64,000 bases of DNA. It comes from Candidatus Aenigmatarchaeota archaeon (GTDB lineage Archaea > Aenigmatarchaeota > Aenigmatarchaeia > GW2011-AR5). The stretch lies in the NCBI GenBank assembly GCA_016187335.1, contig JACPJW010000001.1:448001-512000 (forward strand). Reading direction: 5' to 3'. The translations under genes were made by a program, and so were the position numbers. Below the pieces are notes generated by a model. It searched no databases, had not been told where the DNA came from, and saw only the letters and a list, made by a program, of their open reading frames with translations. Positions 5,132-44,246 of the stretch are shown one piece after another (position 1 is the first letter of the stretch; each line of letters starts with the position of its first letter).

Positions 5132-5181
5132 ATAATAAGAGAAAGAAATCAAGGAAAACAAAGGAGAGGTTGGTCTTGTCT

Positions 5182-5490
5182 ATGGACATAGAGTTTTGTG
5201 GTTGCGGCGGCATGCTTGCGCCTGCCGGAAAGGGATTGCTAAGGTGCAGGTCCTGCGGCAAGGAACTGGAAAAAAAATTTCATGGCAAAATAACGGCAAA
5301 GTCCGAGAAAAAGGAAATCGTCGTGATAGAAGACAACGCTCCTGATCTGCCGACAACTGACAAGGAATGCCCGAAGTGCAAGCATGGAAAGGCTTACTGG
5401 TGGCTCATCCAGACAAGGAGCGCGGACGAGCCGCCCACGCAGTTCTTCCGATGCATAAAGTGCAGGCACGTGTGGCGGGAGTACAAGTGA
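5182..5490 (+). CDS. tfs: Transcription factor S / RpoM family
   Basis: Two zinc ribbons and the QTRSADEPPT acidic hairpin motif. Confidence 0.92.
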   Translation: MDIEFCGCGGMLAPAGKGLLRCRSCGKELEKKFHGKITAKSEKKEIVVIEDNAPDLPTTDKECPKCKHGKAYWWLIQTRSADEPPTQFFRCIKCRHVWREYK

Positions 5491-5563: not shown

Positions 5564-6634
5564 ATGAATTCTTCAGATGCACTTCTCAGGGAGCTTTCTC
5601 CTTATTTCATACCGCCTGAAAAGACCCGTGCAAGGCAGCGTTTCGGCGGCTTTGATGCGGCGAAAACAACATTCAGGGATGCGAAGGTCATCGTATACGG
5701 CGTGCCGTTTGAAGGCACACAGACATATCATGCGGGCAGTCACCTCGGGCCGTGGGCAATCAGGGACGTAACGGGCAACCAGCTTGAACCCTTTGTAATC
5801 GACCAGGGAATCGATCCTTATGCCGCAGTCGGAGTTTTTGATATCGGCGACTTCAAACTTCGCGTTTATAGAAACGATAGAAAACTGATTTATGATGTAA
5901 TGCATCCTTCTGTCAGGGCAACCAAAAGGCAGATAGAAGCAGCCAAAGCCAGAGTAAACAGGGCTGTTGAAAAGCTAGGTAGCCTGGAAAGAATTACCGA
6001 AATGCTGAGGAATGAAGGCAAAGTTCCGCTCATGCTTGGAGGCGAGCATCTGGTTTCTTTGTGGCCTATCAGGGGCGTTTCCAGAGAAAATCCTGTAGTT
6101 CTTCATTTTGACGCTCATATGGACATGAAAAGACAGTATTTAGGCGTCGTTTATTCTCATACAACACCGATGTATCATGTGATTTACGGCGACAAGCCTG
6201 TTGAGGGCAGGGATTTTGTCCAGATAGGAATAAGGCAGGCGTCACCTGATGAGATTGGTAACGCCAAGGAAAAAGGCGTAAATGTTTTTTATTCGCTGAA
6301 ACACACATGGAGAGGAATAGAATCGCAGTTTTCGGATGAAATGATAGCTGATGTGAAAACCTTTGTAAGGGAAATCACGCATGGCAGGCGGGTTTACGTG
6401 ACATTTGATATGGACGTTTTGGATTGCCCTTACGTCCCATTCAGTGGAACTCCCGAGCCTTTTGGAATAACTCCGCTACAGGCTTACAAAATATTTCAGT
6501 CAATAGATGACGGTGCCGAAATAATAGGCATGGATTTTGTTGAAACAAGTTCTGATGGCAAAAGCACAATAGAAGGAGCTGTTGCCTCGCATCTGATTCT
6601 AAGAATGCTCTGCCACCCTTCACTGAGGCGCTAA
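5564..6634 (+). CDS. speB: Agmatinase / arginase-family ureohydrolase
   Basis: GGEH, HFDAHMD, TFDMDVLD and GTPEPFG metal-binding motifs. Confidence 0.8.
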   Translation: MNSSDALLRELSPYFIPPEKTRARQRFGGFDAAKTTFRDAKVIVYGVPFEGTQTYHAGSHLGPWAIRDVTGNQLEPFVIDQGIDPYAAVGVFDIGDFKLRVYRNDRKLIYDVMHPSVRATKRQIEAAKARVNRAVEKLGSLERITEMLRNEGKVPLMLGGEHLVSLWPIRGVSRENPVVLHFDAHMDMKRQYLGVVYSHTTPMYHVIYGDKPVEGRDFVQIGIRQASPDEIGNAKEKGVNVFYSLKHTWRGIESQFSDEMIADVKTFVREITHGRRVYVTFDMDVLDCPYVPFSGTPEPFGITPLQAYKIFQSIDDGAEIIGMDFVETSSDGKSTIEGAVASHLILRMLCHPSLRR

Positions 6635-7332
6635 ACCCAAACCCCCAGCAATGAGCCGATAAGGAAGCCTGTCAATGCCGCTGCCATCCCGACCAAGGAC
6701 ATCTCTATTCCGCTCTTCCACCATGTGCCCAGAGTCATCTTCGCCTTGACGGAGCCGGCGATGAACAAAGTGATAGTTGAAATTATTACGGAAACAATTA
6801 TAGCATCCTTTATCGGTATGAAGAAGAAAGGCAGCAGCGGTATCAGCGAGCCGATGATAGCTGAGAATCCTACGACGAATGCGCTTTTTGTCGGGTTCTC
6901 AGAGTCCTCAGGCGATACGTGAAGTTCCTCTGTCATCATCGTGTCCAGCCACACCTTCTTGTCGGACGTGATTTTGTCCACTATTTTTTTCAGCGGGGCG
7001 CCGCGGAATCCTTTCCTGTAATAAATGTCGCGAATTTCCTTCCTTTCGACATGCGGCAGTTCCCTTATCTCCTTCATCTCCCTTTCCTTTTCGCTTTTGT
7101 AGAAATCCCTGCTTGCCTTGAAGGACGTGTAAGCGACAGCTGCCATGGAAATGCTCTCCGCAAAGGTGGCGGCAATGCCGGCAATAATGACTATTCTGGC
7201 GTCCTGCACGGCTGTCGCGACACCGAGAATGATTCCCAGAACATTGACGAGGCCGTCCTGCCCGCCGAGGATGAAGTCGCGCAGCGTAGAGCCGCTCTTG
7301 TGCATTTCCCTGTGAACGTCTGCTGACGACAT
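6631..7332 (-). CDS. VIT1/CCC1 family metal transporter
   Basis: RDFILGGQDGLV, AESISMA and GSLIPLLPF motifs, with about 5 TM segments. Confidence 0.92.
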   Translation of the reverse strand: MSSADVHREMHKSGSTLRDFILGGQDGLVNVLGIILGVATAVQDARIVIIAGIAATFAESISMAAVAYTSFKASRDFYKSEKEREMKEIRELPHVERKEIRDIYYRKGFRGAPLKKIVDKITSDKKVWLDTMMTEELHVSPEDSENPTKSAFVVGFSAIIGSLIPLLPFFFIPIKDAIIVSVIISTITLFIAGSVKAKMTLGTWWKSGIEMSLVGMAAALTGFLIGSLLGVWV

Positions 7333-7397
7333 GGTTTTCTCTTGGCGAAAACGTGATTTAAAGATTTTAGTTGAGTTTTAGTGTAGCATTAGTTCAT

Positions 7398-7661
7398 GCG
7401 CCCGTAGCTCAGCTTGGCAAACTTTGCTACTCCAAAGTTTGATCAAAAGAGGTCTGTGACGAAGTTTGAGCAAATAGAGCACTTCTCTCCTAGAGGTGAA
7501 TTGAGCGCAACGGAAGACTGAAGTTTCTGAAGAAACTTCAGCCGGTTTTGTGCGATGATAATTTCCTGAAGTGAGGAAGGGGCCGCGCGTTCGAATGCAC
7601 CCTTTCTTGGAAAGAAAGCGTGCACGGAAAGAAAAGGGTGCCGAATATCGCGCCGGGCGCG
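7398..7661 (+). tRNA. tRNA-Arg(CCT) with three introns (7418-7473 D-loop, 7493-7573 at 37/38, 7596-7647 at 59/60)
   Basis: Exons join to a full cloverleaf: GCGCCCG/CGGGCGC acceptor stem, GCTC/GAGC D stem, CTTCT-CTCCTAA-GGAAG anticodon arm, GCGCG-TTCGAAT-CGCGC T arm. Each junction forms a BHB or relaxed BHB. Confidence 0.9.
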
Positions 7662-7664
7662 CTT

Positions 7665-7967
7665 ATGTTCCATTACAGAGATCCGATAAGGGAAATAGCG
7701 GAAGAAGACGGATATTTCCTCACCGAGACAGCCGAAGGTATGAATCTTGCCTTGAAGACAATCTTAGGCTTTGCAAGCATAATACTCAGGGAACTGGAAG
7801 GGGGGAAATGTTATGTAAAAATAGTACTTGAGCCTCCTAGAGGTTTATCAAGGACAGCCGAAGAAATTTTTGAAAGTCCTTATTCCGCGGCCGGATATGT
7901 TGCAAAATGGATGTGCGGACCTATCTATACGGATCTGGTTCAAGAAGTTGAGGCGTTAATTCTCTAA
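7665..7967 (+). CDS. Hypothetical protein
   Basis: 100-aa ORF starting 3 nt after the tRNA. The track's 7620 start lies inside the tRNA intron. Confidence 0.55.
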   Translation: MFHYRDPIREIAEEDGYFLTETAEGMNLALKTILGFASIILRELEGGKCYVKIVLEPPRGLSRTAEEIFESPYSAAGYVAKWMCGPIYTDLVQEVEALIL

Positions 7968-8001
7968 TCTTTATATTCCGCCTTCGCACAAAAGATTCAT
8001 T

Positions 8002-9339
8002 ATGAGGAAATATCTGTTATCAATAGTCCTGCTGCTGCTTTCGTCTGTACCTGTTTTTGCAGTGGGCAACCTCACGGTTTTCAGCGTTCCTTTATCACAG
8101 CCGGCTGTCTACGCAAACACCAACCAGTCCGTTAACGTCCTTAACCTGACCCTGAACGTGACGGCGGGCAGCGGCGCGGACGGCGTCATCAACATAACTG
8201 TCATCAATATTACGGTGACCAACAGCAGCGAAGGCAACCTGTCAGCGGGCAATATATCAGCGGTTGAGGTCAGGAACAGCACGGGGTTCCCGATAGCAAG
8301 GAACACAACAGTCAATCCTGCAAACAACATGACGTTCACGATTTCAATCCCGGGAGGGCTGACCATAAACACATCTAATGCGACCATATGGATTGCCATC
8401 AACATATCAAGGTCGGCGGCGCGCTTCCTGAACATATCAGTGAACATAACGGGTCCCGGGGAAATAGGCACGAACAGCTCTGTGAACAATATCACGATAT
8501 CAGGCGTTTCAATAAAGTCAAACGGCGTGCAGATACAGAATTTACATTCAAACTCAACAATATCGCCGCGCTTTGTGGACACGGGCGTTGAGAACCAGTC
8601 GTTCACTTACACCTTGGTTCCGCCGACTGGAACGGATGCAATAAAGAACGTCAGTATTTCGTTCCCGGCCAATTACACCTTGTCCAAGCTCATTTCAATA
8701 ATGGTTGGCGGCGGCGTCCCGGACGGCGCGACAAACAATACAGCCGTCAACGGCATAAACATTTCCCTGAGCACGGCCACGACCCAGACAATACAGGTAA
8801 ACTTCACCGCCAACACTTCCGTCAATCCTATCCAGAACAGGGCGTTCTCATCAACCCTGGACGGAGGAAACCTCTCTGCCGTGTCAACTGATCCCACGCT
8901 GGAAGGGGTGAATGTAAGCACACAGCCCATACTGAACCTTACGAACGTCACCCTGGTAAAAAGCACTGCAATAATCAACGGCACCGATTACTGGGAATTC
9001 AATTTCACTTTGAATTACACTGCCAACATATCAACAGGAGGCCTGATTCAGTTCAGGCTCACGGACTGGAACACTTCTTCCGGCAGCACGCTTGCATTGA
9101 ACAATTCATTGTGCGATGGCAGCAGGTGCGCGTCCCTGAGGAACGAGACAACCATGAACACCACAGGGAAATTCAACATAACGAATGATTACGAATCTTT
9201 CACAAAGGGAATCACCATATCGTCCATAACACAGGGCACCCTGACAATACTGGTCTTGAGAATGGTAATACCTTCAAATGCCCCGACATCATCCAACTGG
9301 CAGGCTGCTTACGGATTTTTGTTCAGGTCAAGCCCTTGA
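8002..9339 (+). CDS. Secreted Asn/Thr-rich surface glycoprotein
   Basis: Signal peptide, very dense N-x-S/T sequons, beta-rich, no C-terminal TM. The N-terminal module resembles the repeats of 55804-62394. Confidence 0.75.
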   Translation: MRKYLLSIVLLLLSSVPVFAVGNLTVFSVPLSQPAVYANTNQSVNVLNLTLNVTAGSGADGVINITVINITVTNSSEGNLSAGNISAVEVRNSTGFPIARNTTVNPANNMTFTISIPGGLTINTSNATIWIAINISRSAARFLNISVNITGPGEIGTNSSVNNITISGVSIKSNGVQIQNLHSNSTISPRFVDTGVENQSFTYTLVPPTGTDAIKNVSISFPANYTLSKLISIMVGGGVPDGATNNTAVNGINISLSTATTQTIQVNFTANTSVNPIQNRAFSSTLDGGNLSAVSTDPTLEGVNVSTQPILNLTNVTLVKSTAIINGTDYWEFNFTLNYTANISTGGLIQFRLTDWNTSSGSTLALNNSLCDGSRCASLRNETTMNTTGKFNITNDYESFTKGITISSITQGTLTILVLRMVIPSNAPTSSNWQAAYGFLFRSSP

Positions 9340-9360
9340 CGTTTTTAATAGTGATGCTGA

Positions 9361-10572
9361 ATGGATTATCGCCTTTCAATACTTTTAGCTGCGGCATGCC
9401 TGCTTCTGCTGTCCTTCGTTTCCAGAGGAGAAACAACCGGCAATGTAAGCATCTCAACGCAGGGAAATATTTCCCCGTCAACAGGGGTTTACGGATATGT
9501 AGCTCCCGGCGGATGCAACAGCAACGCGGAGTGCTACGACTATAAATGCTTCCAGGATTTTTTGGTGCCATCCGGAAACAAGACCGGCAGGTGCGACGTC
9601 CCGGCAACCACAAAATGCTTTCACAGCGGGACAGGCTATTCAACCGGCACTTATTATTGCTCGGCTAACACATCGTATTACCGGTGCGATACAGGCGGCA
9701 ACGGAAGCTGGACAGGCGCGTTTTCGTGCTCGTCAGGCCAGACGTGTTCTGTTGATAGTACGTCGTCTTCAGCCCCTTGCTCAACATCGTCGCCTTCAAG
9801 CAGCTCAAGCAGCAGCGGAGGCGGAGGCACAGCAATAAAGAAAGCCTCTGTCCAGCTTGTCTCGGGCATAGCCGGCTTTGAAATTTATCAGGAGGAAGAT
9901 GTCAACAAAACGGTTATCGTGAAAAACAACGGCGATTATGTCCTTGGCAATGTCTACCTTGACATACAGGGAATTCCTTTTGCTTCCGTCCTTACGGGCA
10001 GCAGCGAGATCAATTTGTCAAAAAATTACAACTTCACCGTGTCTTTCATGCCCAAAAACTCTACTGAAATCAGGACGTACCCCGCCAATGCAACGGTTTA
10101 TACCAACTTCACCAATACGACGGCAAACTTTTCCTTCACAGTCAAAGTACTCCCAAGCAACAGGACCGTTTCAGAGTCAATCATTCCCGCGTACGCAGAA
10201 TATATCAACCTTTCTCTGGAATACGAAAAGAACGTAACGGCCCTGGAAAAGGAAGGGCATAACCTCACGGATGCGAGGGCGATTCTTACGACAATAAAGG
10301 CAAAGATGCAGGACATCAACCAGTCGATATCCAAGAAGGACTACTTTTCTGCTGCATCCCAGATCAGCGAGGTGAAGGTTCTTTTTGATGAGCTCCAGAA
10401 AACCATTTCAAAATCCGAAAAGCCGAAAGGAACGGATATAATAATTTATCTGGCCGTCGCCGCTGCCATTCTGGTGGCAGTTATTCTGGCCTACCTTCTG
10501 TGGCCGTCAAAGCAGCAAAGAAGAGTTTTTCAGGGCCAGCAGTATTCGCAAGCAGCAGTAATTAAGCAATAG
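9361..10572 (+). CDS. Membrane-anchored surface protein (Cys-rich module, Ser/Gly linker, Ig/CARDB-like domain, coiled coil, C-terminal TM)
   Basis: Signal peptide, Cys cluster, SSSSSSGGGG linker, and the hydrophobic IIIYLAVAAAILVAVILAYLLWP segment. Confidence 0.75.
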   Translation: MDYRLSILLAAACLLLLSFVSRGETTGNVSISTQGNISPSTGVYGYVAPGGCNSNAECYDYKCFQDFLVPSGNKTGRCDVPATTKCFHSGTGYSTGTYYCSANTSYYRCDTGGNGSWTGAFSCSSGQTCSVDSTSSSAPCSTSSPSSSSSSSGGGGTAIKKASVQLVSGIAGFEIYQEEDVNKTVIVKNNGDYVLGNVYLDIQGIPFASVLTGSSEINLSKNYNFTVSFMPKNSTEIRTYPANATVYTNFTNTTANFSFTVKVLPSNRTVSESIIPAYAEYINLSLEYEKNVTALEKEGHNLTDARAILTTIKAKMQDINQSISKKDYFSAASQISEVKVLFDELQKTISKSEKPKGTDIIIYLAVAAAILVAVILAYLLWPSKQQRRVFQGQQYSQAAVIKQ

Positions 10573-10927
10573 AGATCCGGCCGGCGTCAGCGGCTGGTGG
10601 TTTCTTTCCCTGAACCGACCTTTCTGCGGCAAACTTGCAGAGGATGACAAATCTGCTGTTCAGTTCGCCGCGGTCAAGCTTGTTTTCAAAAATCACGGAA
10701 GCCAGTTTTCTCGCCTCTGAAATTATTTCGTCGTTGGAAAAAACCCTGTCGTTTTTCCCCCTTATCCTGCGCAGGTATTGCGATATTGCCGGCTGCGATA
10801 TTCCCATCAGCCTTGCGGCCTCGCTCTGGTTAAGATTGTAGCCCTCAATAAGCTCTCTGGCTATCAATGATCTCAGAGACGGAACTATTTCGCTGGCAAT
10901 CAGTTCCCATTCAATTTTCATTTTCAA
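10562..10927 (-). CDS. HTH transcriptional regulator (archaeal COG2522-like)
   Basis: IVPSLRSLIARELI...NQSEAARLMGISQPAISQY HTH motif. Confidence 0.8.
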   Translation of the reverse strand: MKMKIEWELIASEIVPSLRSLIARELIEGYNLNQSEAARLMGISQPAISQYLRRIRGKNDRVFSNDEIISEARKLASVIFENKLDRGELNSRFVILCKFAAERSVQGKKPPAADAGRISIA

Positions 10928-10999
10928 TCACCGATGCAAGGAGAAGCAAAGCTTCTATGATAAGAGATTGAAACAAACGTTTTTAAGCCTGATAAGTTT

Positions 11000-11107
11000 C
11001 TAGAATTTTATTATACCGAGGGCTATGAGGCCTGTCACCAGAACGATGGCCGTTATGAGTATCCAGAAATAAGTGTAAACGTAATCATGCGTCGACTTTT
11101 CTTTCAT
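11000..11107 (-). CDS. 35-aa single-TM peptide resembling a pilin-type N-terminus
   Basis: Translates MKEKSTHDYVYTYFWILITAIVLVTGLIALGIIKF. It fills the intergenic gap co-directionally with its neighbours. Confidence 0.5.
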   Translation of the reverse strand: MKEKSTHDYVYTYFWILITAIVLVTGLIALGIIKF

Positions 11108-11162
11108 AATCAGAACCCATCATGTTAATTAATTTTATTTAGTCGGTTCCGGTACCTCCGAC

Positions 11163-11687
11163 TTATTTCTTCATCATCAGGGGCTCCCCTTTTTCAGGGT
11201 AATGCACGTCAATCAGCTCGTAATCCTGCAGTACGCGGGCCCACTGCTCTACAAGGCCTTCATGGACGCCGAATTTCTTCGCGGCGTCTTTCAGTTTCAC
11301 CTTTTTGTTTTTCATCACCAGGTCAAACAGCTCGTCCAGAGGCGCCTTGTAATCCTTCTTCAAATCAGCAATAACCTTTTCATTGCTCACGATGCCTTCC
11401 TTGGCGACTCTTTCAAAGAACTTTGCATTATCAATGATTATCTGCTTTGCAGGCTTGACAATGCTTTCTTTTACCGGCTCTGAAATGCTTGGCAGCTTTC
11501 TCAGAATATCCTTGTATCTTTCAAGAAGAAAATCCCTGTCGCTTTTCAGCTCGATGTTTTCTTTTTTCAGCTTGATTATAGTATCCTTCATGATGGAGAA
11601 GGATTCCTCCATGCGCTGCATCCTCCTGTTCATTTCCCTTTCAAGTCTGGCAATTTTTTTTTCGGCGTCGTCAGCGAATAGAGGCAT
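11163..11687 (-). CDS. Coiled-coil protein with a C-terminal winged-HTH-like domain
   Basis: N-terminal heptad repeats. C-terminal LDELFDLV...DAAKKFGV...VEQWARVL. Confidence 0.65.
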   Translation of the reverse strand: MPLFADDAEKKIARLEREMNRRMQRMEESFSIMKDTIIKLKKENIELKSDRDFLLERYKDILRKLPSISEPVKESIVKPAKQIIIDNAKFFERVAKEGIVSNEKVIADLKKDYKAPLDELFDLVMKNKKVKLKDAAKKFGVHEGLVEQWARVLQDYELIDVHYPEKGEPLMMKK

Positions 11688-11747
11688 AAGAAAAAATTCT
11701 TTTGATATTTTTTAAAGCTTATAACGAACGGGAGCGAACACATATGC

Positions 11748-12548
11748 ATGTACGTTGTCAAGGCCGACGGCCGGCGCGAGACTTTCAGCAAAGAGAAAAT
11801 AATAAATACATGCCTCAAGGCCGGAACCGACAGGAAGAAGGCTGAGGAAATATCAGGAAAAGTTTTTTCGTCCGTCAAAGACGGGATTGCCACGAAGGAA
11901 ATATACAGAATGATTCTGAATCTTCTTGAAAAAGCGAGCCATAGGTCATCTTTCTTTTTCCGCCTCAGGGACGCAATAGCAAAGCTCGATTCTGAAAGCT
12001 ATGAACTCTATGTAAAAGAGCTTTTGGAATCCATGGGCTACAAATGCTCGTGGAATAAAATCATTGCCGGAAAATCCGTGGAGCATCAGGTTGATATTGT
12101 TGCAAAAAACGCGAAAGGCAGAATGTTTCTTGTTGAATGCAAAAGGCACGTGAACCCCCACAGGTTCTGCGGCCTGGGCGTCATTTTGCAGGTCCAGGCG
12201 CGCCTTGAGGACATAGATGACGGCTTCGAATCAGGGAAAAATAATTGCAGGTTTGACCAGGCGTGGATATTCAACAACACGAAATTCTCGGAGCACGCAA
12301 AGCAGTACGCTGCGGCAAAAAATATCCTCCTGAGCGGATGGGGGTACAAAGGAAGCATTTCTATAGAAAAGCTTGCTGGCAGGAACAGGATATATCCCGT
12401 GACGCTGCTGAAAGCAGACAATTCAACAATACAGCAGCTGCTCCGTCAGAAAATAATCACGGTGGAGGATGTCCTGAAAGAAAAGATAAGCATGCCGAAG
12501 AGCGTTGCCGATGAGCTCAGGAAGCAGGCACGTATCATTCTTTCTTAA
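11748..12548 (+). CDS. ATP-cone + Mrr-like PD-(D/E)xK endonuclease
   Basis: MYVVKADGRRETFSKEKI ATP cone, and QVDIVA...LVECKRH nuclease motif. Confidence 0.8.
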   Translation: MYVVKADGRRETFSKEKIINTCLKAGTDRKKAEEISGKVFSSVKDGIATKEIYRMILNLLEKASHRSSFFFRLRDAIAKLDSESYELYVKELLESMGYKCSWNKIIAGKSVEHQVDIVAKNAKGRMFLVECKRHVNPHRFCGLGVILQVQARLEDIDDGFESGKNNCRFDQAWIFNNTKFSEHAKQYAAAKNILLSGWGYKGSISIEKLAGRNRIYPVTLLKADNSTIQQLLRQKIITVEDVLKEKISMPKSVADELRKQARIILS

Positions 12549-12573
12549 AAATTATCTGTGCAGTTATTAGCAG

Positions 12574-12678
12574 GCCGGCGTCGCATAATCTGGTGGTGCA
12601 CTGATTGCATGCGAAGCAAGTGTATGTCTCGAAAACCAGCGGGCTCTGCCCATGCAGGTTCAAATCCTGCCGCCGGCG
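12574..12678 (+). tRNA. tRNA-Ser(CGA) with a 22-nt intron at 29/30 (12604-12625)
   Basis: GCCGGCG/CGCCGGC acceptor stem, CTG|GT-CTCGAAA-ACCAG anticodon arm, long variable arm, GCAGG-TTCAAAT-CCTGC T arm. BHB central helix GCAC/GTGT. Confidence 0.9.
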
Positions 12679-12682
12679 CTTT

Positions 12683-13150
12683 ATGATAGAAATAAAACTA
12701 GCTGCTGAAAAGGATAGGCAAGGCTTTGAAAATCTGGCTGCAGAAAGAGACAAAGAAATAAGGCAGCGCAGGGCAAAAAATTACTGGGGCAAAAAATTCA
12801 CGAAGCTTGTCATGGAAAAGAGGCTGGTAATTAGCCTTGACAAAGGCAAGCCATCAGGATTTCTTTATTTTACATTCGAATTTATCGACTATCCTGCGGC
12901 GTACGTTGAGCTTATTTTTGTTTCAAAGAAGAGCCGGAGAAAGGGTTCAGCCTTGTATTTGTTGAATAGATTCGAGCGGCTCGCGTCAGAAAACGGTTTT
13001 GTCAATGTATTTTCCAGCACAAATCCAAGCAACAGGATCTCGCTGAAATTGCACAAGAAGCTCGGCTACAAAGAATGCGGCTTTATCTACGGCATAGAAA
13101 ACAGGCGCAGCAAGGAGATTTTTCTCTCAAAAGAACTGAAAAAAACCTAA
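12683..13150 (+). CDS. GNAT family N-acetyltransferase
   Basis: VELIFVSKKSRRKGSA acetyl-CoA-binding motif and NRISLKLHKKLGY. Confidence 0.85.
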   Translation: MIEIKLAAEKDRQGFENLAAERDKEIRQRRAKNYWGKKFTKLVMEKRLVISLDKGKPSGFLYFTFEFIDYPAAYVELIFVSKKSRRKGSALYLLNRFERLASENGFVNVFSSTNPSNRISLKLHKKLGYKECGFIYGIENRRSKEIFLSKELKKT

Positions 13151-13191
13151 ACTTCCTTTTTAAGTTTTGAAACAAGTTCTTAGTATTTCAT

Positions 13192-13451
13192 GCCGGGATA
13201 CCGAAATCAGGTCTCTCAAGATAAGAGTGAAGAAATTCACGATGATTGCCTTTCATTGGTAAACGGGCCAGTGCAGTTCCGCTTCAAAGAAGCGGTGCGG
13301 CCAACCTTGAGAGCTGGTGCGCCTTCGGCGCGTGGGGGTTCAAAGCACCCTTTCTTTTTGCAAAAGAAAGCGTGCGCGGAAAGAAAAGCAACTTTTCAGA
13401 AAAGTTGCATCAAAAATAAAGGAAAGGGCTGTGAAATTCCCTCTCCCGGCG
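13192..13451 (+). tRNA. tRNA-Ser(TGA) with three introns (13209-13256 D-loop, 13272-13304 at 30/31, 13345-13437 at 59/60)
   Basis: Spliced product has GCCGGGA/TCCCGGC acceptor, CCAG|C-CTTGAGA-GCTGG anticodon arm, GCGCC/GGCGC variable arm and GGGGG-TTCAAA|T-CCCTC T arm. BHB central helices GAAA/TTTC, GGCC/GGCC and TTCA/TGAA. Confidence 0.9.
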
Positions 13452-13505
13452 CTTTTTTCTTGAAGATGCAAGAAGCTTTTAAAATAACCATTTCTAATTA
13501 TAAAC

Positions 13506-14030
13506 ATGGCAAGCGATTTTTACCGCCAGCTGGGGTCAGGCGTTGCCAGCCTGACGTTCGGCGTTGCGCTTTCCGTATTCATTTACGCTGCCGCTTCTGG
13601 TGCGGCAAGCAGCCTGCAGTCATGGCTGCTCTTTGCGGCATCGTTCCTGCTGATGCTCAGGTTCTGGTGGCGGTACAGCGAACTTTTCGTGCAGTTCCTG
13701 CCGTCCCGCACGTTTTCGCATTTCCTGTTTGACTTTGCGATTTCATTCTTCGGCATTCTGGCAGTGCTTTTTGTAAGCGCTATGCAGACATGGGCAGCCT
13801 TGGGGGCACTGGCTATGCTTTCAAGCGCGATACGATGCAGGCTTTCGTGGAACGAAGCATCCAAGGATGTAAAGGCAAAGCTGAAAAGAACTTTTGCAGG
13901 AGCATTGGCGATGCTTTTTGTCTTCGCTGCGATATACGCCCTTGCACCGGTCTTTGATCAGATTTTGCTTGCTGCATTAGTATTTCTCATAGTTCTGCTG
14001 TTCGTTGTTTACGCCTCAAGAAAGCCGTGA
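13506..14030 (+). CDS. Multi-pass membrane protein of unknown function
   Basis: Five to six hydrophobic segments, clean ORF. Confidence 0.75.
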   Translation: MASDFYRQLGSGVASLTFGVALSVFIYAAASGAASSLQSWLLFAASFLLMLRFWWRYSELFVQFLPSRTFSHFLFDFAISFFGILAVLFVSAMQTWAALGALAMLSSAIRCRLSWNEASKDVKAKLKRTFAGALAMLFVFAAIYALAPVFDQILLAALVFLIVLLFVVYASRKP

Positions 14031-14038
14031 TTTTGAAA

Positions 14039-14054
14039 TCTCCCGGCGCTTTTT
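14039..14054 (+). repeat. 16-bp direct repeat of the tRNA-Ser(TGA) 3' end
   Basis: TCTCCCGGCGCTTTTT occurs at 13442-13457 and 14039-14054. Confidence 0.75.
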
Positions 14055-14141
14055 ATATTCTGAAGAATATATGTCAGCCAAGACAAAAGTATTTAAATCT
14101 TTAATCACTAATAAGTAGTATCAAAATTATGAGGTGTGGAT

Positions 14142-14399
14142 ATGGTAGAACATTTCATTGGAAAGATATCAACTCAAGTTCTTACGGATTTAAATAGAGG
14201 CAGGGATACGTGGGAAGTTCCATATGAAGCCGTGATTTATGTAAAGGAAGGTCCAGAAGCATGTGGACAGGTTCTTGGAATAGTTCCGGGACTTAGCCCT
14301 GATATGAGAATGCGTACAATGAGCGTTTATGCAGGCAGAAAATTCGTGTCAAAGCCTTCAGAACACGGCTACAAAGATATTTTCGAAATCGTGGAATAG
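14142..14399 (+). CDS. Hypothetical protein
   Basis: GAGGTG SD at 14131-14136 ahead of the ATG. Confidence 0.6.
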   Translation: MVEHFIGKISTQVLTDLNRGRDTWEVPYEAVIYVKEGPEACGQVLGIVPGLSPDMRMRTMSVYAGRKFVSKPSEHGYKDIFEIVE

Positions 14400-14600
14400 A
14401 AATTTTCTAACGTAAAACAAAAACGTTGATTATTTTACAATTCTCTTTTTTATTTCACTATTTATCTTTCTTTTATTTCAAATTATAAAATTCTTTGATT
14501 AATTCTTCAAAATCCCGTGCTTCTCTCGTGCTTTCTGCGTAATTTGCGCCTTGGAAAATCTTTATTAATGGGTTTTTACAAGAACTATAAAGGTGAAGAA

Positions 14601-15236
14601 ATGGTATCCCAGATAGTAGATGTATTATCTCAGTTTACCGTTGGTACAGTGTCTTTCCTGCCAAGCCTGGTTGCTGCCGTCATTCTTCTGGTCATCGGCT
14701 TGGTTGTTGGAAAAATAGTGGGAAGGGTAGTCAAGGAAGCCTTGGAAAAGCTGAAGGTTGACTACTACGTTTCGGAAACCAAGAAGCCCGTTGTGATGCT
14801 GAGCGATTTGTTCGCCCTCATAGCAAGATGGTGGATATACCTTGCGTTCGTAACGGCGGCTTTGTCCACGAACGTTCTTGGCATACCGTCATTGGCGTTG
14901 TGGGTTTCTGAAATCAATGCATTCATCCCGCGAATCATCGGCGCAGCCGTGATTCTGATTTCGGGCTACATCCTGGCTGAGTACATCAGGGGTCACTTGG
15001 TGTCATTGAAGAAACTCTATGCAGAGGTTGTCGGCAAGATGCTATTCTTCTTCGTCATGTACGTGGCGCTTGCGCTTGCCCTGCCTATTCTAGGGGTTTC
15101 AGCAATCCTGGTGAACAACATCCTGATAGTAATCATAGCCTCGATAGGGCTTGCAATGGCAATAGCCCTGGGCCTGGGATTGAAGGACGCTGTTTCTGAC
15201 GTTTCCAAGAGATATGTCAAAAAGCTGAAAGTTTGA
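14601..15236 (+). CDS. CmpX-like / MscS TM-helix-repeat membrane protein
   Basis: FLPSLVAAVILLVIG and FIPRIIGAAVIL repeats, and AIALGLGLKD. Confidence 0.8.
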   Translation: MVSQIVDVLSQFTVGTVSFLPSLVAAVILLVIGLVVGKIVGRVVKEALEKLKVDYYVSETKKPVVMLSDLFALIARWWIYLAFVTAALSTNVLGIPSLALWVSEINAFIPRIIGAAVILISGYILAEYIRGHLVSLKKLYAEVVGKMLFFFVMYVALALALPILGVSAILVNNILIVIIASIGLAMAIALGLGLKDAVSDVSKRYVKKLKV

Positions 15237-15266
15237 TTTTTTTGCTTTCATTTCAATTTTTCATTT

Positions 15267-15611
15267 CTAATGACTAGGCCGCCAAGCAATGGGATTGAGG
15301 CCTGATATTTCCCACCATGAAAAATCCTTGCCGGTTAAAATTTCCCTCGGGTCGTGTATTCCCGCTTTTCCGGAATGAACCGGCAGTTCTACCCCTTCCA
15401 GTTCCTGCTCACTTACAACACAGTAGTGTTCGTCGGATCTGGCGTGGCTGAATACAAGCCTGATTGAAGCAATCCCCGGAGCGATATACCCTTTATCCCA
15501 TAATTGCTGGTACGGCTCAAGCCCTCTGAAAGCAAAGGGAAGGTTCGTCTCCCTGCGGTTTTTCAGATAATTTTCAATAGTTCCGTCCCTTTCAGGTTTA
15601 TAAAATGGCAT
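15267..15611 (-). CDS. Hypothetical protein
   Basis: 114-aa ORF that fills the gap with no competing feature. Confidence 0.5.
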   Translation of the reverse strand: MPFYKPERDGTIENYLKNRRETNLPFAFRGLEPYQQLWDKGYIAPGIASIRLVFSHARSDEHYCVVSEQELEGVELPVHSGKAGIHDPREILTGKDFSWWEISGLNPIAWRPSH

Positions 15612-15653
15612 ACCCTTAGTTCTTAAGAATTAAGCATAAATAGAAATCTTGAC

Positions 15654-15834
15654 GCGATGGTAGTCTAGGAACCCTTTTTCTCGTTGCGCTCGAAAAAGCG
15701 TTCACGGAAAATGGGTTGGAAGATGGTAGGATACAACCTTGCCAACGGCCCTTTTCAAAAAGCGCCGGCGGAAAATGCAAACAGGTTGAGAGGCGAAAGC
15801 CCGACAAACCCGGGTTCAAATCCCGGCCGTCGCA
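15654..15834 (+). tRNA. tRNA-Gly(GCC) with three introns (15670-15722 D-loop, 15745-15782 at 37/38, 15791-15807 variable loop)
   Basis: GCGATGG/CCGTCGC acceptor, CAACC-TTGCCA|A-GGTTG anticodon arm, AG|AC variable loop, CCGGG-TTCAAAT-CCCGG T arm. BHB central helices TCTA/TGGA, TTGC/GCAA and GTTG/CGAC. Confidence 0.9.
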
Positions 15835-15928
15835 TAAACAAGAAAAAAATAGCCGGAAACAAGGGTCCCAGTCAGGCAACGCATCTCAATTATTTATATA
15901 GCCCCCTGACAAATATTGTATTGATATC

Positions 15929-16411
15929 ATGTTCTTCAAAAAGAAAGACAATTACGAGGAAATAAAGCGCGCCGTTGAAGAGCCTGTTTCTTCCGAGCCG
16001 ACATTGCAGGACCTGGAAATAGAGGACCTGCCGCCGGAAATGCGCTACGACAAGAATTATGCGGAGCCCCGGGACAGCGCGCCTCTTTTCGTCAAGGTGG
16101 AGAAGTACAAGGAACTGATAGGCCTCATACAGGAAATGCGGGCATTTACAAACGGATTGAAGCAGACGTTTTCTGTGATACACGAGTCTGATGCGCTGCG
16201 CAACGATGCCGTTAAAATCATGCGCACGACGGTCCAGCGGCTGGACAAGACCTTGGCAGAAATTGACAGCGAGCTGGTAAGGCCGCGCGGCATTGACATG
16301 GAAAAGCCGCCTTACGCCGGCAGCGAAATGAAATACATTGAAGGATCGCTGTCAGAATTGCAGCGCCATTTGGCTGTTTTGCGCAAGGATCTGCAGGAAA
16401 TGAAGGAATGA
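15929..16411 (+). CDS. Coiled-coil hypothetical protein
   Basis: PLFVKVEKYKEL followed by long heptad repeats. Confidence 0.65.
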   Translation: MFFKKKDNYEEIKRAVEEPVSSEPTLQDLEIEDLPPEMRYDKNYAEPRDSAPLFVKVEKYKELIGLIQEMRAFTNGLKQTFSVIHESDALRNDAVKIMRTTVQRLDKTLAEIDSELVRPRGIDMEKPPYAGSEMKYIEGSLSELQRHLAVLRKDLQEMKE

Positions 16412-16460
16412 TCAGGTTATCTGGTTCTTAAATATTTCATCAAAAATTACTACATTCAGT

Positions 16461-16732
16461 GCGGCCGTCGCCAAGAGGCCCTTTTTAGAAAAAAGCGTCT
16501 ACGGAAAAACTAAAAAGCGTCTGGAAATCTGGTCAAAGGCGCGGGTTTCACTTGAGTGTTGATGCGCAAGCAGGTGAAAGCGTAACTCAAGGCAGCTGAC
16601 GAGGCTGACGCACTTCGTGCGTCATGCTGTTTGATATCCCGTCGGTTAGTCCGTTCGGCGGTTCGAATGCACCCTTTCTTAGAAAGAAAGCGTGCACGGA
16701 AAGAAATGGTGCCGAAAATCCGCCCGGCCGCA
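16461..16732 (+). tRNA. tRNA-Leu(CAA) with four introns (16476-16527 at 15/16, 16546-16584 at 30/31, 16592-16635 at about 37/38, 16668-16718 at 59/60)
   Basis: Spliced sequence GCGGCCG TC GCCAAG|TCTGGTCAAAGGC G CGGG|A CTCAAG|A TCCCG TCGGTTAGTCCGTTC GGCGG TTCGAA|T CCGCC CGGCCGC A is a standard archaeal Leu cloverleaf. The 59/60 BHB is perfect and the others are relaxed. Confidence 0.88.
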
Positions 16733-16790
16733 TTTATTCAATTTTCGCTTCACCAAAACCCTTAAAACCGCTCACTTTAAAGTAGCAACC

Positions 16791-17564
16791 ATGGATGAGT
16801 ACCTGCTGACAGTGGGCATCGGCGTATTGATTCTTGCGCTCCTGCTGCTGATAACGAATGCCCAGTTCATAACCGGCGCCGCCCCTTCAAGGCAGCTTGT
16901 CCCGGCTACGAGCGTTTTTGACCTTGGCAGTTTCAGCTCAACCTTCGTCAAGGAAACGAAAACTTATGATTTGGGCAGCAAGGAAGTGTCTAATGGTGTT
17001 TTGTTTGGCGAAAACAAGCTGGAGTTCCACGCAGAAGCGCCTGAGATCGAATCAGCACTGGTAAAATTCCGTGTCGCGCGCATGAATGACCTGGGACCTC
17101 TTTTCGTGAAGTACAACGGCGACGTCGTTGAAAAAAAGCGCTACGCTGCGGGGGATTATGCCGTAAGAGTGCCAAAAGAAATGCTTAACGAATCAAGCAC
17201 CATTGAAATGTCTGCTTCATCATCGCTTTGGCAGTTCTGGGCGCCCAATATCTACAGCCTCAGGAATATAAATCTTATAGTGAAATCCTTTGATTTCAGC
17301 CCCGCGGAGCTTAACTTCACGCTTGGCGAGGAATACACAACGCTGAAGCAGGGAAGGATTGAGTTCAGCTTAGAAGAAAACACTGGAAGAATGGCTGTTG
17401 TTCTCAACGGGAAAGAAATCATGAATGATTTTGCGCGCAACGAGCAGTCCGTGCCATTCAGCAAAGAGGAAGCGAGAGCAGGGGAAAACAAAATAAGGAT
17501 TGTGCCGCTGCAGGGCTCGCGCTTCAGCGGAACTGCGCATGTTGTCGTGTTTTGGGAGAAATAG
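16791..17564 (+). CDS. N-terminally anchored beta-sandwich surface protein
   Basis: Hydrophobic N-terminus from ATG 16791. The track's 16692 start lies inside the tRNA intron. Confidence 0.7.
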   Translation: MDEYLLTVGIGVLILALLLLITNAQFITGAAPSRQLVPATSVFDLGSFSSTFVKETKTYDLGSKEVSNGVLFGENKLEFHAEAPEIESALVKFRVARMNDLGPLFVKYNGDVVEKKRYAAGDYAVRVPKEMLNESSTIEMSASSSLWQFWAPNIYSLRNINLIVKSFDFSPAELNFTLGEEYTTLKQGRIEFSLEENTGRMAVVLNGKEIMNDFARNEQSVPFSKEEARAGENKIRIVPLQGSRFSGTAHVVVFWEK

Positions 17565-43729: not shown

Positions 43730-43854
43730 AGCCACCGGAGGGAATTGAACCCCCAACCTATTGCTAGTTCTTTTGGGGTATGCAAAGACCTTTTCTTTCA
43801 AGAAAAGGGATTTGCTTACGAAGCAATCGCTCTGCCAGGTTGAGCTACGGTGGC
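43730..43854 (-). tRNA. tRNA-Thr(CGT) with a 51-nt intron at 37/38 (43766-43816)
   Basis: GCCACCG/CGGTGGC acceptor, ATTGC-TTCGTA|A-GCAAT anticodon arm, GGGGG-TTCAATT-CCCTC T arm. Confidence 0.92.
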
Positions 43855-43952
43855 GGCAGCAGTATGATAATTGATGAAAAGAAATTAAAGAGCAAATGAA
43901 AAGTAATATGTTTCTTTTTTCCGAGGGTTTTTCTTTTTGAAAGAAAAAAGCT

Positions 43953-44246
43953 CTACTTCTTCTTCCTGACCCAGATGTCCTGCGCGGAGTAGTAGATCAT
44001 GCCCAGCGAGACGGCAAGCACGGACAATGCCCAGAGCCACCCTATGTTTACGTAGGCGAGTATCTGCCTTGCAAATTCCTGGGTTTCTTCGACAGGGGCC
44101 CCGGCATTGGGCACCGCCGATGGTTCCGCGGATGCTAAGGCGTTCAGGCCGCCGCCTAGCTGCATCAGCATGTACATGAACACCACATTCCCGAGGAATG
44201 CGATGATGCCCACTATAAGGAACGCAACTGAAGATGTCCTTGCCAT
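43953..44246 (-). CDS. Two-TM membrane protein
   Basis: Two hydrophobic helices. Confidence 0.65.
   Translation of the reverse strand: MARTSSVAFLIVGIIAFLGNVVFMYMLMQLGGGLNALASAEPSAVPNAGAPVEETQEFARQILAYVNIGWLWALSVLAVSLGMIYYSAQDIWVRKKK

Follow-up and report, generated by a model that had tools for sequence, protein, structure and literature searches.

The region analysed here is a stretch of 64,000 nucleotides (the window) from the genome of a Candidatus Aenigmatarchaeota archaeon (contig JACPJW010000001.1, positions 448,001 to 512,000). The source genome, G000, comprises 1.01 Mb on two contigs and is 90.8% complete. Four tRNA genes of the window (tRNA-Arg, tRNA-Ser, tRNA-Gly and tRNA-Leu) are interrupted by introns that share a 16-base motif, AAAGCG-NNNN-CGGAAA, referred to below as the core. 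The core is the 3' half of a structured non-coding repeat element of 35-60 nt. This element has the layout N3-CCC-UUU(U)-variable hairpin tip-(A)AAA-GCG-N3'-R-CGG-AAA(A)-purine tail, where N3 stands for the three bases directly 5' of CCC, N3' is the reverse complement of N3 and the tail often ends in ATATTA. The element is a repeat family whose copies are dispersed and strand-specific; it reaches tens of copies in a genome and has carriers in many archaeal lineages.

The four host genes are broken by several introns, and the element explains why standard tRNA finders miss them. Neither ARAGORN nor Rfam called any of them on the unspliced window, and an automatic search for bulge-helix-bulge (BHB) motifs with ARAGORN over all combinations was too noisy. 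Once the introns had been removed by hand, all four tRNAs were called by ARAGORN (Table 1). An initial annotation, made from the sequence alone, had placed six copies of the core in tRNA introns at four splice positions, and splicing confirms this: the introns lie at 59/60 (three of them), 16/17, ~15/16 and 37/38. The boundaries of the tRNA-Leu D-loop intron are accurate to ~2 nt. In the tRNA-Gly D-loop intron the first N3 base (15669) is also the last base of the exon, and removal of this intron restores a canonical D-loop, AGGAUGGUA. The tRNA-Gly is still 90 nt long after removal of both motif-bearing introns, and a third short insert (~16 nt, anticodon stem to T-stem) is likely in the region 15783-15834.

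Table 1. Host tRNA genes, motif-bearing introns and two stand-alone copies (positions refer to the window unless a contig is named)
Feature	Position	Strand	Details
tRNA-Arg(CCU) gene	7398-7661	+	Three introns, 7418-7474, 7493-7573 and 7596-7647; spliced product is a 75-nt tRNA-Arg(cct) (ARAGORN)
tRNA-Arg T-loop (59/60) intron	7596-7647	+	N3 GCA 7597-7599; CCC 7600-7602; core 7615-7630
tRNA-Arg T-loop intron, 3' end	7636-7647	+	GGGTGC 7636-7641; exon-pairing CGAA + 2 nt 7642-7647
tRNA-Ser(UGA) gene	13192-13451	+	tRNA-Ser(tga) (ARAGORN) after removal of 13345-13437 and upstream introns
tRNA-Ser T-loop (59/60) intron	13345-13437	+	N3 GCA 13345-13347; CCC 13348-13350; core 13367-13382
tRNA-Gly(GCC) gene	15654-15834	+	Introns 15670-15722 and 15745-15782; tRNA-Gly(gcc) (ARAGORN) after splicing
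tRNA-Gly D-loop (16/17) intron	15670-15722	+	N3 GAA 15669-15671; CCC 15672-15674; core 15695-15710
tRNA-Gly canonical 37/38 intron	15745-15782	+	N3 CGG 15746-15748; CCC 15749-15751; core 15759-15774
tRNA-Leu gene	16461-16732	+	Introns ~16475-16527, ~16551-16633 and 16668-16718; tRNA-Leu (ARAGORN) after removal
tRNA-Leu D-loop (~15/16) intron	16475-16527	+	N3 AGG 16476-16478; CCC 16479-16481; core 16492-16507
tRNA-Leu T-loop (59/60) intron	16668-16718	+	N3 GCA 16669-16671; CCC 16672-16674; core 16687-16702; strict hBHBh'
Stand-alone shorter variant	43905-43957	-	N3 GAG; single C opposite C; CTC-G-G; CATATTA
Locus with the copy in the prolyl-tRNA synthetase gene	G000:C2:578008-578499 (locus L127)	-	In-frame insert

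The six copies in the window are exact and all on the + strand, and the core did not occur in any of 100 dinucleotide-preserving shuffles. The whole G000 genome has 48 exact copies, compared to none of the reversed pattern used as a control, and 58 copies if one mismatch is allowed. An upstream CCCTT had been noted to accompany the core; it precedes the core by no more than 60 nt in 40 of the 48 copies (background: 7%). Rfam 15 gave only tRNA matches at the gathering score for the window and ten further loci, with no family matching the element, and a permissive scan of 15600-16800 gave a single sub-threshold tRNA-like match. K-turn, box C/D and ribozyme readings were dropped, as there was no Rfam match and no RUGAUGA or CUGA box was visible by eye. 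The motif is undescribed in the full-text literature searched (PMC3239211 included; most subscription journals lay outside the search). The DNA of the window occurs in groundwater metagenomes.

Within the phylum, the core is found in 157 of 371 genomes (0-61 copies each; control ~0). It is unevenly distributed by family, with carriers making up 37/43 genomes of the source organism's own family and 0/21, 0/23 and 0/19 of three others. A composite pattern (CCCTTT, gap, core) was searched in a collection of 185,579 species and matched at least 120 contigs; ~69 of 80 among the matches listed are archaeal. The element is found in at least 14 other archaeal lineages. Carriers among the matches listed include DPANN archaea (Aenigmatarchaeota, Nanoarchaeota/Woesearchaeota, Micrarchaeota, Iainarchaeum, Undinarchaeota and Altiarchaeales), methanogens and their relatives (ANME-1, Methanosarcinales, Methanocellales and Methanobacteriota), Bathyarchaeia, Nitrosotalea, Hadesarchaea and Thermococcaceae. 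N3 and N3' are complementary in 2/11 bacterial matches versus ~112/119 others, again among the matches listed, and the bacterial matches are presumably chance occurrences that can serve as an internal control. A Candidatus Altarchaeum contig (locus L010, 4889-5070) has three tandem copies with a 71-nt period, an array-like arrangement unlike the dispersed copies elsewhere.

The initial annotation had described the centre of the core as a mini-hairpin around a variable NN. The mini-hairpin itself stands, since its Y-R pair is present in 47/48 G000 copies and in 154/154 pooled copies and covaries (UA 13, CG 10 and UG 2 in the alignment described below). The middle bases, however, are constrained: in 45/48 G000 copies, the first three of the core's four N positions (YNN) read as the reverse complement of N3. 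Shuffling the partners gives 10.9 such copies on average and 19 at most. Of the 21 distinct N3/YNN types in this genome, 18 are complementary. When copies from over 100 further contigs are added, the rule holds in 154/177 cases with 18 different triplets in many phyla (for example GCA/TGC, AGA/TCT, AAG/CTT, CAG/CTG and GAA/TTC, given as N3/YNN). Pairing of R with the base preceding N3 was considered and rejected, as it occurs at chance level (37/154).

Because YNN is complementary to N3, the conserved fold is likely to be a long hairpin, N3-CCC-UUU...AAA-GCG-N3'. Twenty-five gap-free minimal copies from different genomes were aligned and tested against N3-CCC-UUUU...AAAA-GCG-N3'. All of the 225 cells pair (100%; slid controls: 44-63%), and the three outer pairs vary on both strands (CG 10, GC 8, AU 5 and UA 2; AU 21, GC 3 and CG 1; AU 15 and GC 10). 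This covariation, together with the number of copies, supports the earlier proposal that one structured element is common to introns with unrelated exon contexts. One position is an invariant mismatch: the middle C of CCC always lies opposite the C of GCG. As the long hairpin and the mini-hairpin share the strand GCG-YNN, the two folds are mutually exclusive.

Near-identical G000 copies differ in N3/YNN by 0.46 per site versus 0.03-0.04 elsewhere, and N3 and YNN are complementary throughout despite these differences (both observations from 8 pairs only). Such complementarity could result from selection on the stem, from quasi-palindrome (template-switch) correction or from a choice of site guided by base pairing. 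A subclass of elements with a pyrimidine-loop-purine hairpin has mirrored tracts as well. The A-runs that flank the core have the same length in 33 of 36 distinct elements (16 on average and at most 27 after shuffling), and asymmetric purine tracts (4+6 vs 6+4; 3+4 vs 4+3) follow mirror order and not direct order. To judge from tract order, these mirrored purine tracts have the layout of a fold-back intramolecular triplex.

It had been suggested that splicing explains none of the conservation in these introns. This holds for the core itself, which splicing leaves unexplained, but not for the N3-CCC arm. Introns often carry a third segment, AAAGGG-N3', after the core that is able to pair with N3-CCC, and CCCTTT/AAAGGG ends are found only in intron copies. 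N3-CCC and the 3' GGG-N3' are predicted to form the intron-internal helix of the BHB. The BHB is strict in the T-loop introns of tRNA-Arg (hBHBh' with 4/4/4 pairs) and tRNA-Leu, and relaxed in the tRNA-Ser T-loop intron and the tRNA-Gly D-loop intron. The predicted energies of the alternative intron folds are close together. In the minimum free energy fold of the tRNA-Arg intron the 5' arm pairs with the 3' GGGUGC and is compatible with a BHB; in those of the tRNA-Leu T-loop and tRNA-Gly 37/38 introns the long hairpin is formed, with the C.C mismatch in the case of tRNA-Gly. Both excision of the introns and folding of the element are inferred from sequence. The finding of one core in four tRNAs and at four positions in the window, with many more genome-wide, is what characterizes transposed introns.

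Copies of the element come and go between close relatives. The congeners G188, G189 and G190, which share 84-96% identity across long stretches of synteny, have orthologous tRNA-Gly(GCC) genes. The G188 gene has one intron, a motif-bearing T-loop intron. In G189 the T-loop is intact (TTCGAAT) and a 20-nt insert is present elsewhere in the gene. The G190 gene has four introns derived from other hairpin modules, of which the T-loop intron is a shorter variant like that at 43905-43957 of the window. The insert at the filled site brings both N3 (AAG) and its exon-complementary adaptor (CGAA + 2 nt) with it. Another orthologous T-loop intron retains N3 and YNNR and has its hairpin tip swapped. The congener G191 belongs to the same genus as G000 and is too diverged for synteny at the DNA level; over 9.5 kb only short modules match (84-97% identity), and the orthologous tRNA-Ser genes of the two genomes have different intron bodies at the same two sites. 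Turnover is also seen at gene ends. In genus g7, one stop codon is immediately followed by the element in four of the five genomes. The neighbouring gene end is filled in G180, where a 14-nt duplicate of the end of the upstream gene comes after the insert. G178 and G179 lack the insert here, and their next gene starts 0-1 nt past the stop codon. These filled and empty sites and swapped bodies support the suggestion that the element behaves as a non-autonomous one that spreads. Four DNA runs over 7300-16800 behaved as expected for a repeat, in that assembled contigs are interrupted or switch from one copy of the element to another. These runs yielded no clean empty allele and are uninformative on polymorphism. 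Assembly breaks at these loci are attributed to the repeated element.

Other hairpin repeats were encountered in the same genomes. A second hairpin module (CAAACTTTT-loop-AAAAGTTTG, then ATCAAAA) fills the tRNA-Arg D-loop intron (7418-7474), is also part of the tRNA-Ser T-loop intron (~13385-13415) and recurs across the genome. It matches G191 (loci L163 and L165) at 90-97% identity, and the orthologous tRNA-Ser 37/38 site of G191 has this module instead of the motif element. A further tRNA gene of the window (43730-43854, - strand; Rfam score: 53 bits) has a canonical intron with a CCCUUUUCUU-loop-AGAAAAGG hairpin and tail. The same hairpin and tail are found directly behind the stop codon of the transcription factor S (TFS) gene in G190 (locus L129), and so a second element family shares both niches. 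Another short repeat lies directly past a gene end at 11105-11163; it matches at least five places in G191 (81-90% identity), and the flanking genes have no match at the DNA level. Finally, G188 (L230, ~6300-6700) and G189 (L239), which are ~92% identical there, differ by the presence or absence of several other small palindromic inserts (~27 nt and ~54 nt) that adjoin a conserved copy of the element. These differences show rapid turnover of several hairpin-repeat families.

A count of intronic and non-intronic copies places ~30 of the 58 G000 copies in the D-, anticodon- and T-loops of identifiable tRNA genes; among the others, ~12 abut stop codons and one lies in the gene for prolyl-tRNA synthetase (ProRS). 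The ProRS copy is a 36-nt in-frame insert that adds 12 residues after RCLPF and has no counterpart in any of the 13 aligned family orthologues. No BHB partner is evident for this insert, and it is therefore probably translated. Comparison with solved ProRS structures gave no answer as to whether the segment is an insert; the family orthologues did. Another copy outside introns, near the tRNA gene at 43730-43854, had been taken for a degenerate one. It is real, and is better described as a shorter variant of the same architecture, with a pyrimidine/purine hairpin and a mirrored A-rich tail. It starts at the TAG stop of an ORF (open reading frame), ~50 nt upstream of the tRNA gene. Two copies at G000:C2:236768-236822 lie head to head, in opposite orientation, beside a tRNA-like D-arm.

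The copies outside tRNAs indicate that the element is able to insert elsewhere. They bear directly on the proposal that the motif is an intron-specific module, either a protein-binding platform carried by circularised introns after excision or a mobile element that is restricted to introns. All 17 copies of G188 (17/17) and the majority in G000 are in tRNA genes, and the covarying Y-R pair of the mini-hairpin would suit such a module. The same element, however, is found behind stop codons, between convergent genes and in frame inside ProRS, and N3/N3' pairing is retained in stand-alone copies that have no 3' GGG-N3' partner. An intron-specific module is thus very unlikely, and the circular-intron version put forward in the initial annotation is not upheld.

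The tail of the stand-alone copies raises another possibility. Eight of 12 have an ATATTA-like word 5-6 nt past the core, and T-runs lie directly past the stop codons. The element could accordingly be imagined as a mobile terminator and promoter cassette, in which the T-rich 5' arm stops the upstream gene and the purine tract and ATATTA act as a B recognition element and TATA box. At least five of the 12 stand-alone G000 copies, however, lie between convergent genes, and at those copies the tail is not a promoter. Further, the distance from ATATTA to the start codon is inconsistent, the same tail is present inside tRNA introns, and a TATA-like word distinct from the tail is found at the usual distance from the window's own tRNA. 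Promoter activity of the tail was rejected on the grounds of inconsistent spacing and often convergent neighbours, and the cassette as a whole is slightly less credible still than an intron-specific module.

On balance, it is more likely than not that the element represents a hitherto undescribed family of small, structured insertion elements, pan-archaeal in distribution, that are able to make themselves spliceable. The proposed model is as follows. The element would be a small non-autonomous insertion similar in type to repetitive extragenic palindromes (REPs) or miniature inverted-repeat transposable elements (MITEs), persisting only where insertion is harmless. Insertion into a tRNA gene would be harmless because N3-CCC pairs with the downstream GGG-N3' to give the inner BHB helix. 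A short exon-complementary 3' adaptor would complete the BHB, such that the host splicing endonuclease could remove the whole insert. An intron adapted to one loop would spread to the same loop of other tRNAs, and intron copies would exchange parts, probably by gene conversion. Outside tRNAs, copies would survive directly behind stop codons, with the stop drawn into the stem, or rarely as in-frame inserts. The core AAAGCG...CGGAAA would be retained as a requirement of the element's own folding or propagation, with GCG-N3' pairing alternately with N3-CCC or with R-CGG (the mini-hairpin).

Several results weigh against this model. First, ~12 G000 copies begin 0-2 nt past the in-frame stop of an ORF on the same strand (77-827 codons). 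The junctions are TAG-A-CCC, TAG-G-CCC, TAA-G-CCC, TAG-AA-CCC and TGA-CCC, and the stop codon is predicted to be part of the stem and to pair with YNN(R). Second, the orthologous stop site in genus g7 has undergone a matched change (TAA-G with CTTG, TAG-G with CCTG), which shows that N3/YNN pairing is maintained or re-created at gene ends. Both the exact abutment and the matched change fit a selected host function as well as they fit selfish spread. Third, target-site duplications (14 nt and 9 nt) are present at only 2 of 16 stand-alone copies. Fourth, core sequences from different phyla are almost the same, pointing to a conserved partner that acts in trans.

The main rival is accordingly a host-functional cis-element, that is, a 3'-end, terminator or RNA-stability hairpin or a site bound by a conserved archaeal protein, selected at gene ends, homogenised between loci through gene conversion and only secondarily intronic. 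The abutting stops are native. All 30 family orthologues of TFS end at WREYK/R, and the element is present there only in G000. G180, from another genus of the same family, has TAA-G-CCC...CTTG where ORFs with 104 or more open codons end, in four clear cases; a fifth stop-adjacent candidate (L203) has only 7 open codons. A selected hairpin would also account for the spacer copy shared by four congeners (where TAA to TAG is matched by CTT to CCT), for the conservation of the core across phyla and for the finding that 10/30 TFS orthologues have a pyrimidine-loop-purine hairpin of some kind no more than 7 nt from the stop. (The window encodes a second, more divergent TFS paralogue at 5137-5487 that is 50% identical to the copy at G000:C2:883894.)

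Such a function is difficult to reconcile with the absence of the element from whole families and with the existence of empty orthologous sites. Neither the in-frame ProRS copy nor the exclusive location of the G188 copies in tRNA genes is explained by a role at gene ends, and at the copies that lie between convergent genes the ATATTA tail is not a promoter. The idea that every gene ends in a pyrimidine-arm hairpin was rejected, as a loose genome-wide detector gave 74 hits at stops versus 93 at random positions. Across distant phyla, 6 of 109 elements are stop-adjacent (defined as having the end of an ORF of 80 codons or more no further than 10 nt away) versus 2.6% of random positions. Stop adjacency is thus a feature of some lineages, such as G000 and G180, and is not general across phyla. 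A selected gene-end function is on the whole unlikely, although it deserves the most weight among the alternatives, and it and an insertion element are not mutually exclusive.

The search for a mobilising enzyme also weighs against the proposed model. The initial annotation had suggested a search for a co-distributed nuclease or transposase gene. Y1_Tnp (PF01797) was found neither in G000 nor in five relatives that have 32-61 copies each, in searches where the positive controls were detected; no related transposase-encoding element was found by means of PF01797, other transposase families not having been searched. Of four high-copy relatives, one encodes a reverse transcriptase (PF00078), which was not found in G000. 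The genomes used in these searches are 80-91% complete. The Y1 result also affects a further alternative, that of a REP or IS200/IS605-type element whose Y1 transposase (RAYT/TnpA) reads its target through an internal guide tetranucleotide. YNN(R) does match the bases that abut the 5' end of the element, as the guide matches the target in IS608, and the extragenic, stop-proximal placement is that of REPs. However, N3 comes with the insert in the filled/empty tRNA pair and is absent from the empty site, which argues against a simple guide-target choice at tRNA sites. Given this and the missing Y1_Tnp, such an element is highly improbable. A bolder form of the insertion model is a transposase-less element moved by universal host machinery, in which YNN would be templated from, or would select, the triplet at the 5' junction, and a hairpin or triplex "clip" would create BHB introns de novo in archaeal tRNA genes and, now and then, in other genes. 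This form is distinctly doubtful; if true, it would answer how archaeal BHB introns arrive.

The element may be compared with several known systems. The transposed tRNA introns of Thermoproteales are near-identical short introns without ORFs in different tRNA genes and positions; they are reported to need a BHB at the new site and to have been gained late and repeatedly (Fujishima et al. 2010, Mol Biol Evol 27:2233, as cited in PMC3239211 and PMC4090602). The introns described here are likewise similar short introns at distinct tRNA genes and positions. They differ in that the core is shared over many phyla and is also present at stops and in a coding sequence. They differ further, as far as the Thermoproteales introns are described in the literature searched, in the covarying hairpin with its C.C mismatch and in the mirrored purine tracts. 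A 2026 preprint surveying Asgard tRNA introns concludes that "how they arrive remains open" (doi 10.64898/2026.10.13.758758). For the arrival of short ORF-less introns at new archaeal tRNA positions, the element is a concrete and widespread candidate that can be searched for by a defined structure and brings its own inner BHB helix. Specific features of the element are its complementary hypervariable junction triplet, conserved C.C mismatch, mirrored purine tracts and stop codon in the stem.

REPs and bacterial interspersed mosaic elements (BIMEs), which have RAYT transposases, are short imperfect palindromes with tens to hundreds of copies that are strand-specific and mostly 3' of genes (PMC2817692). 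The element resembles REP/BIME in being short, palindromic, multi-copy and strand-specific. Unlike them, it is archaeal, has no RAYT/Y1 gene that could be found, gives rise to spliceable introns and has an outer stem that is hypervariable yet always complementary. Rickettsia palindromic elements (RPEs) and similar MITEs are small palindromic repeats inserted in frame. The 12-residue insert in ProRS, an essential protein, is of this kind, but it is a single in-frame case, and the main niche of the element is tRNA introns and spacers. In IS608, a member of the IS200/IS605 family, an internal guide sequence pairs with bases flanking the end of the element. Here too, a short internal sequence is complementary to bases at the element's end; the pairing, however, is a plain hairpin extension, no Y1 transposase was found, and the tRNA flank arrives with the element. 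Finally, a pyrimidine tract, loop, purine tract, short turn and mirrored purine tract make up the layout of an intramolecular R.R:Y (purine.purine:pyrimidine) triplex. The element has the same tract order as H-DNA mirror repeats and fold-back triplexes; to our knowledge, purine-motif triplexes are not established for natural RNAs. Each known system fits the element in part and none fits it fully.

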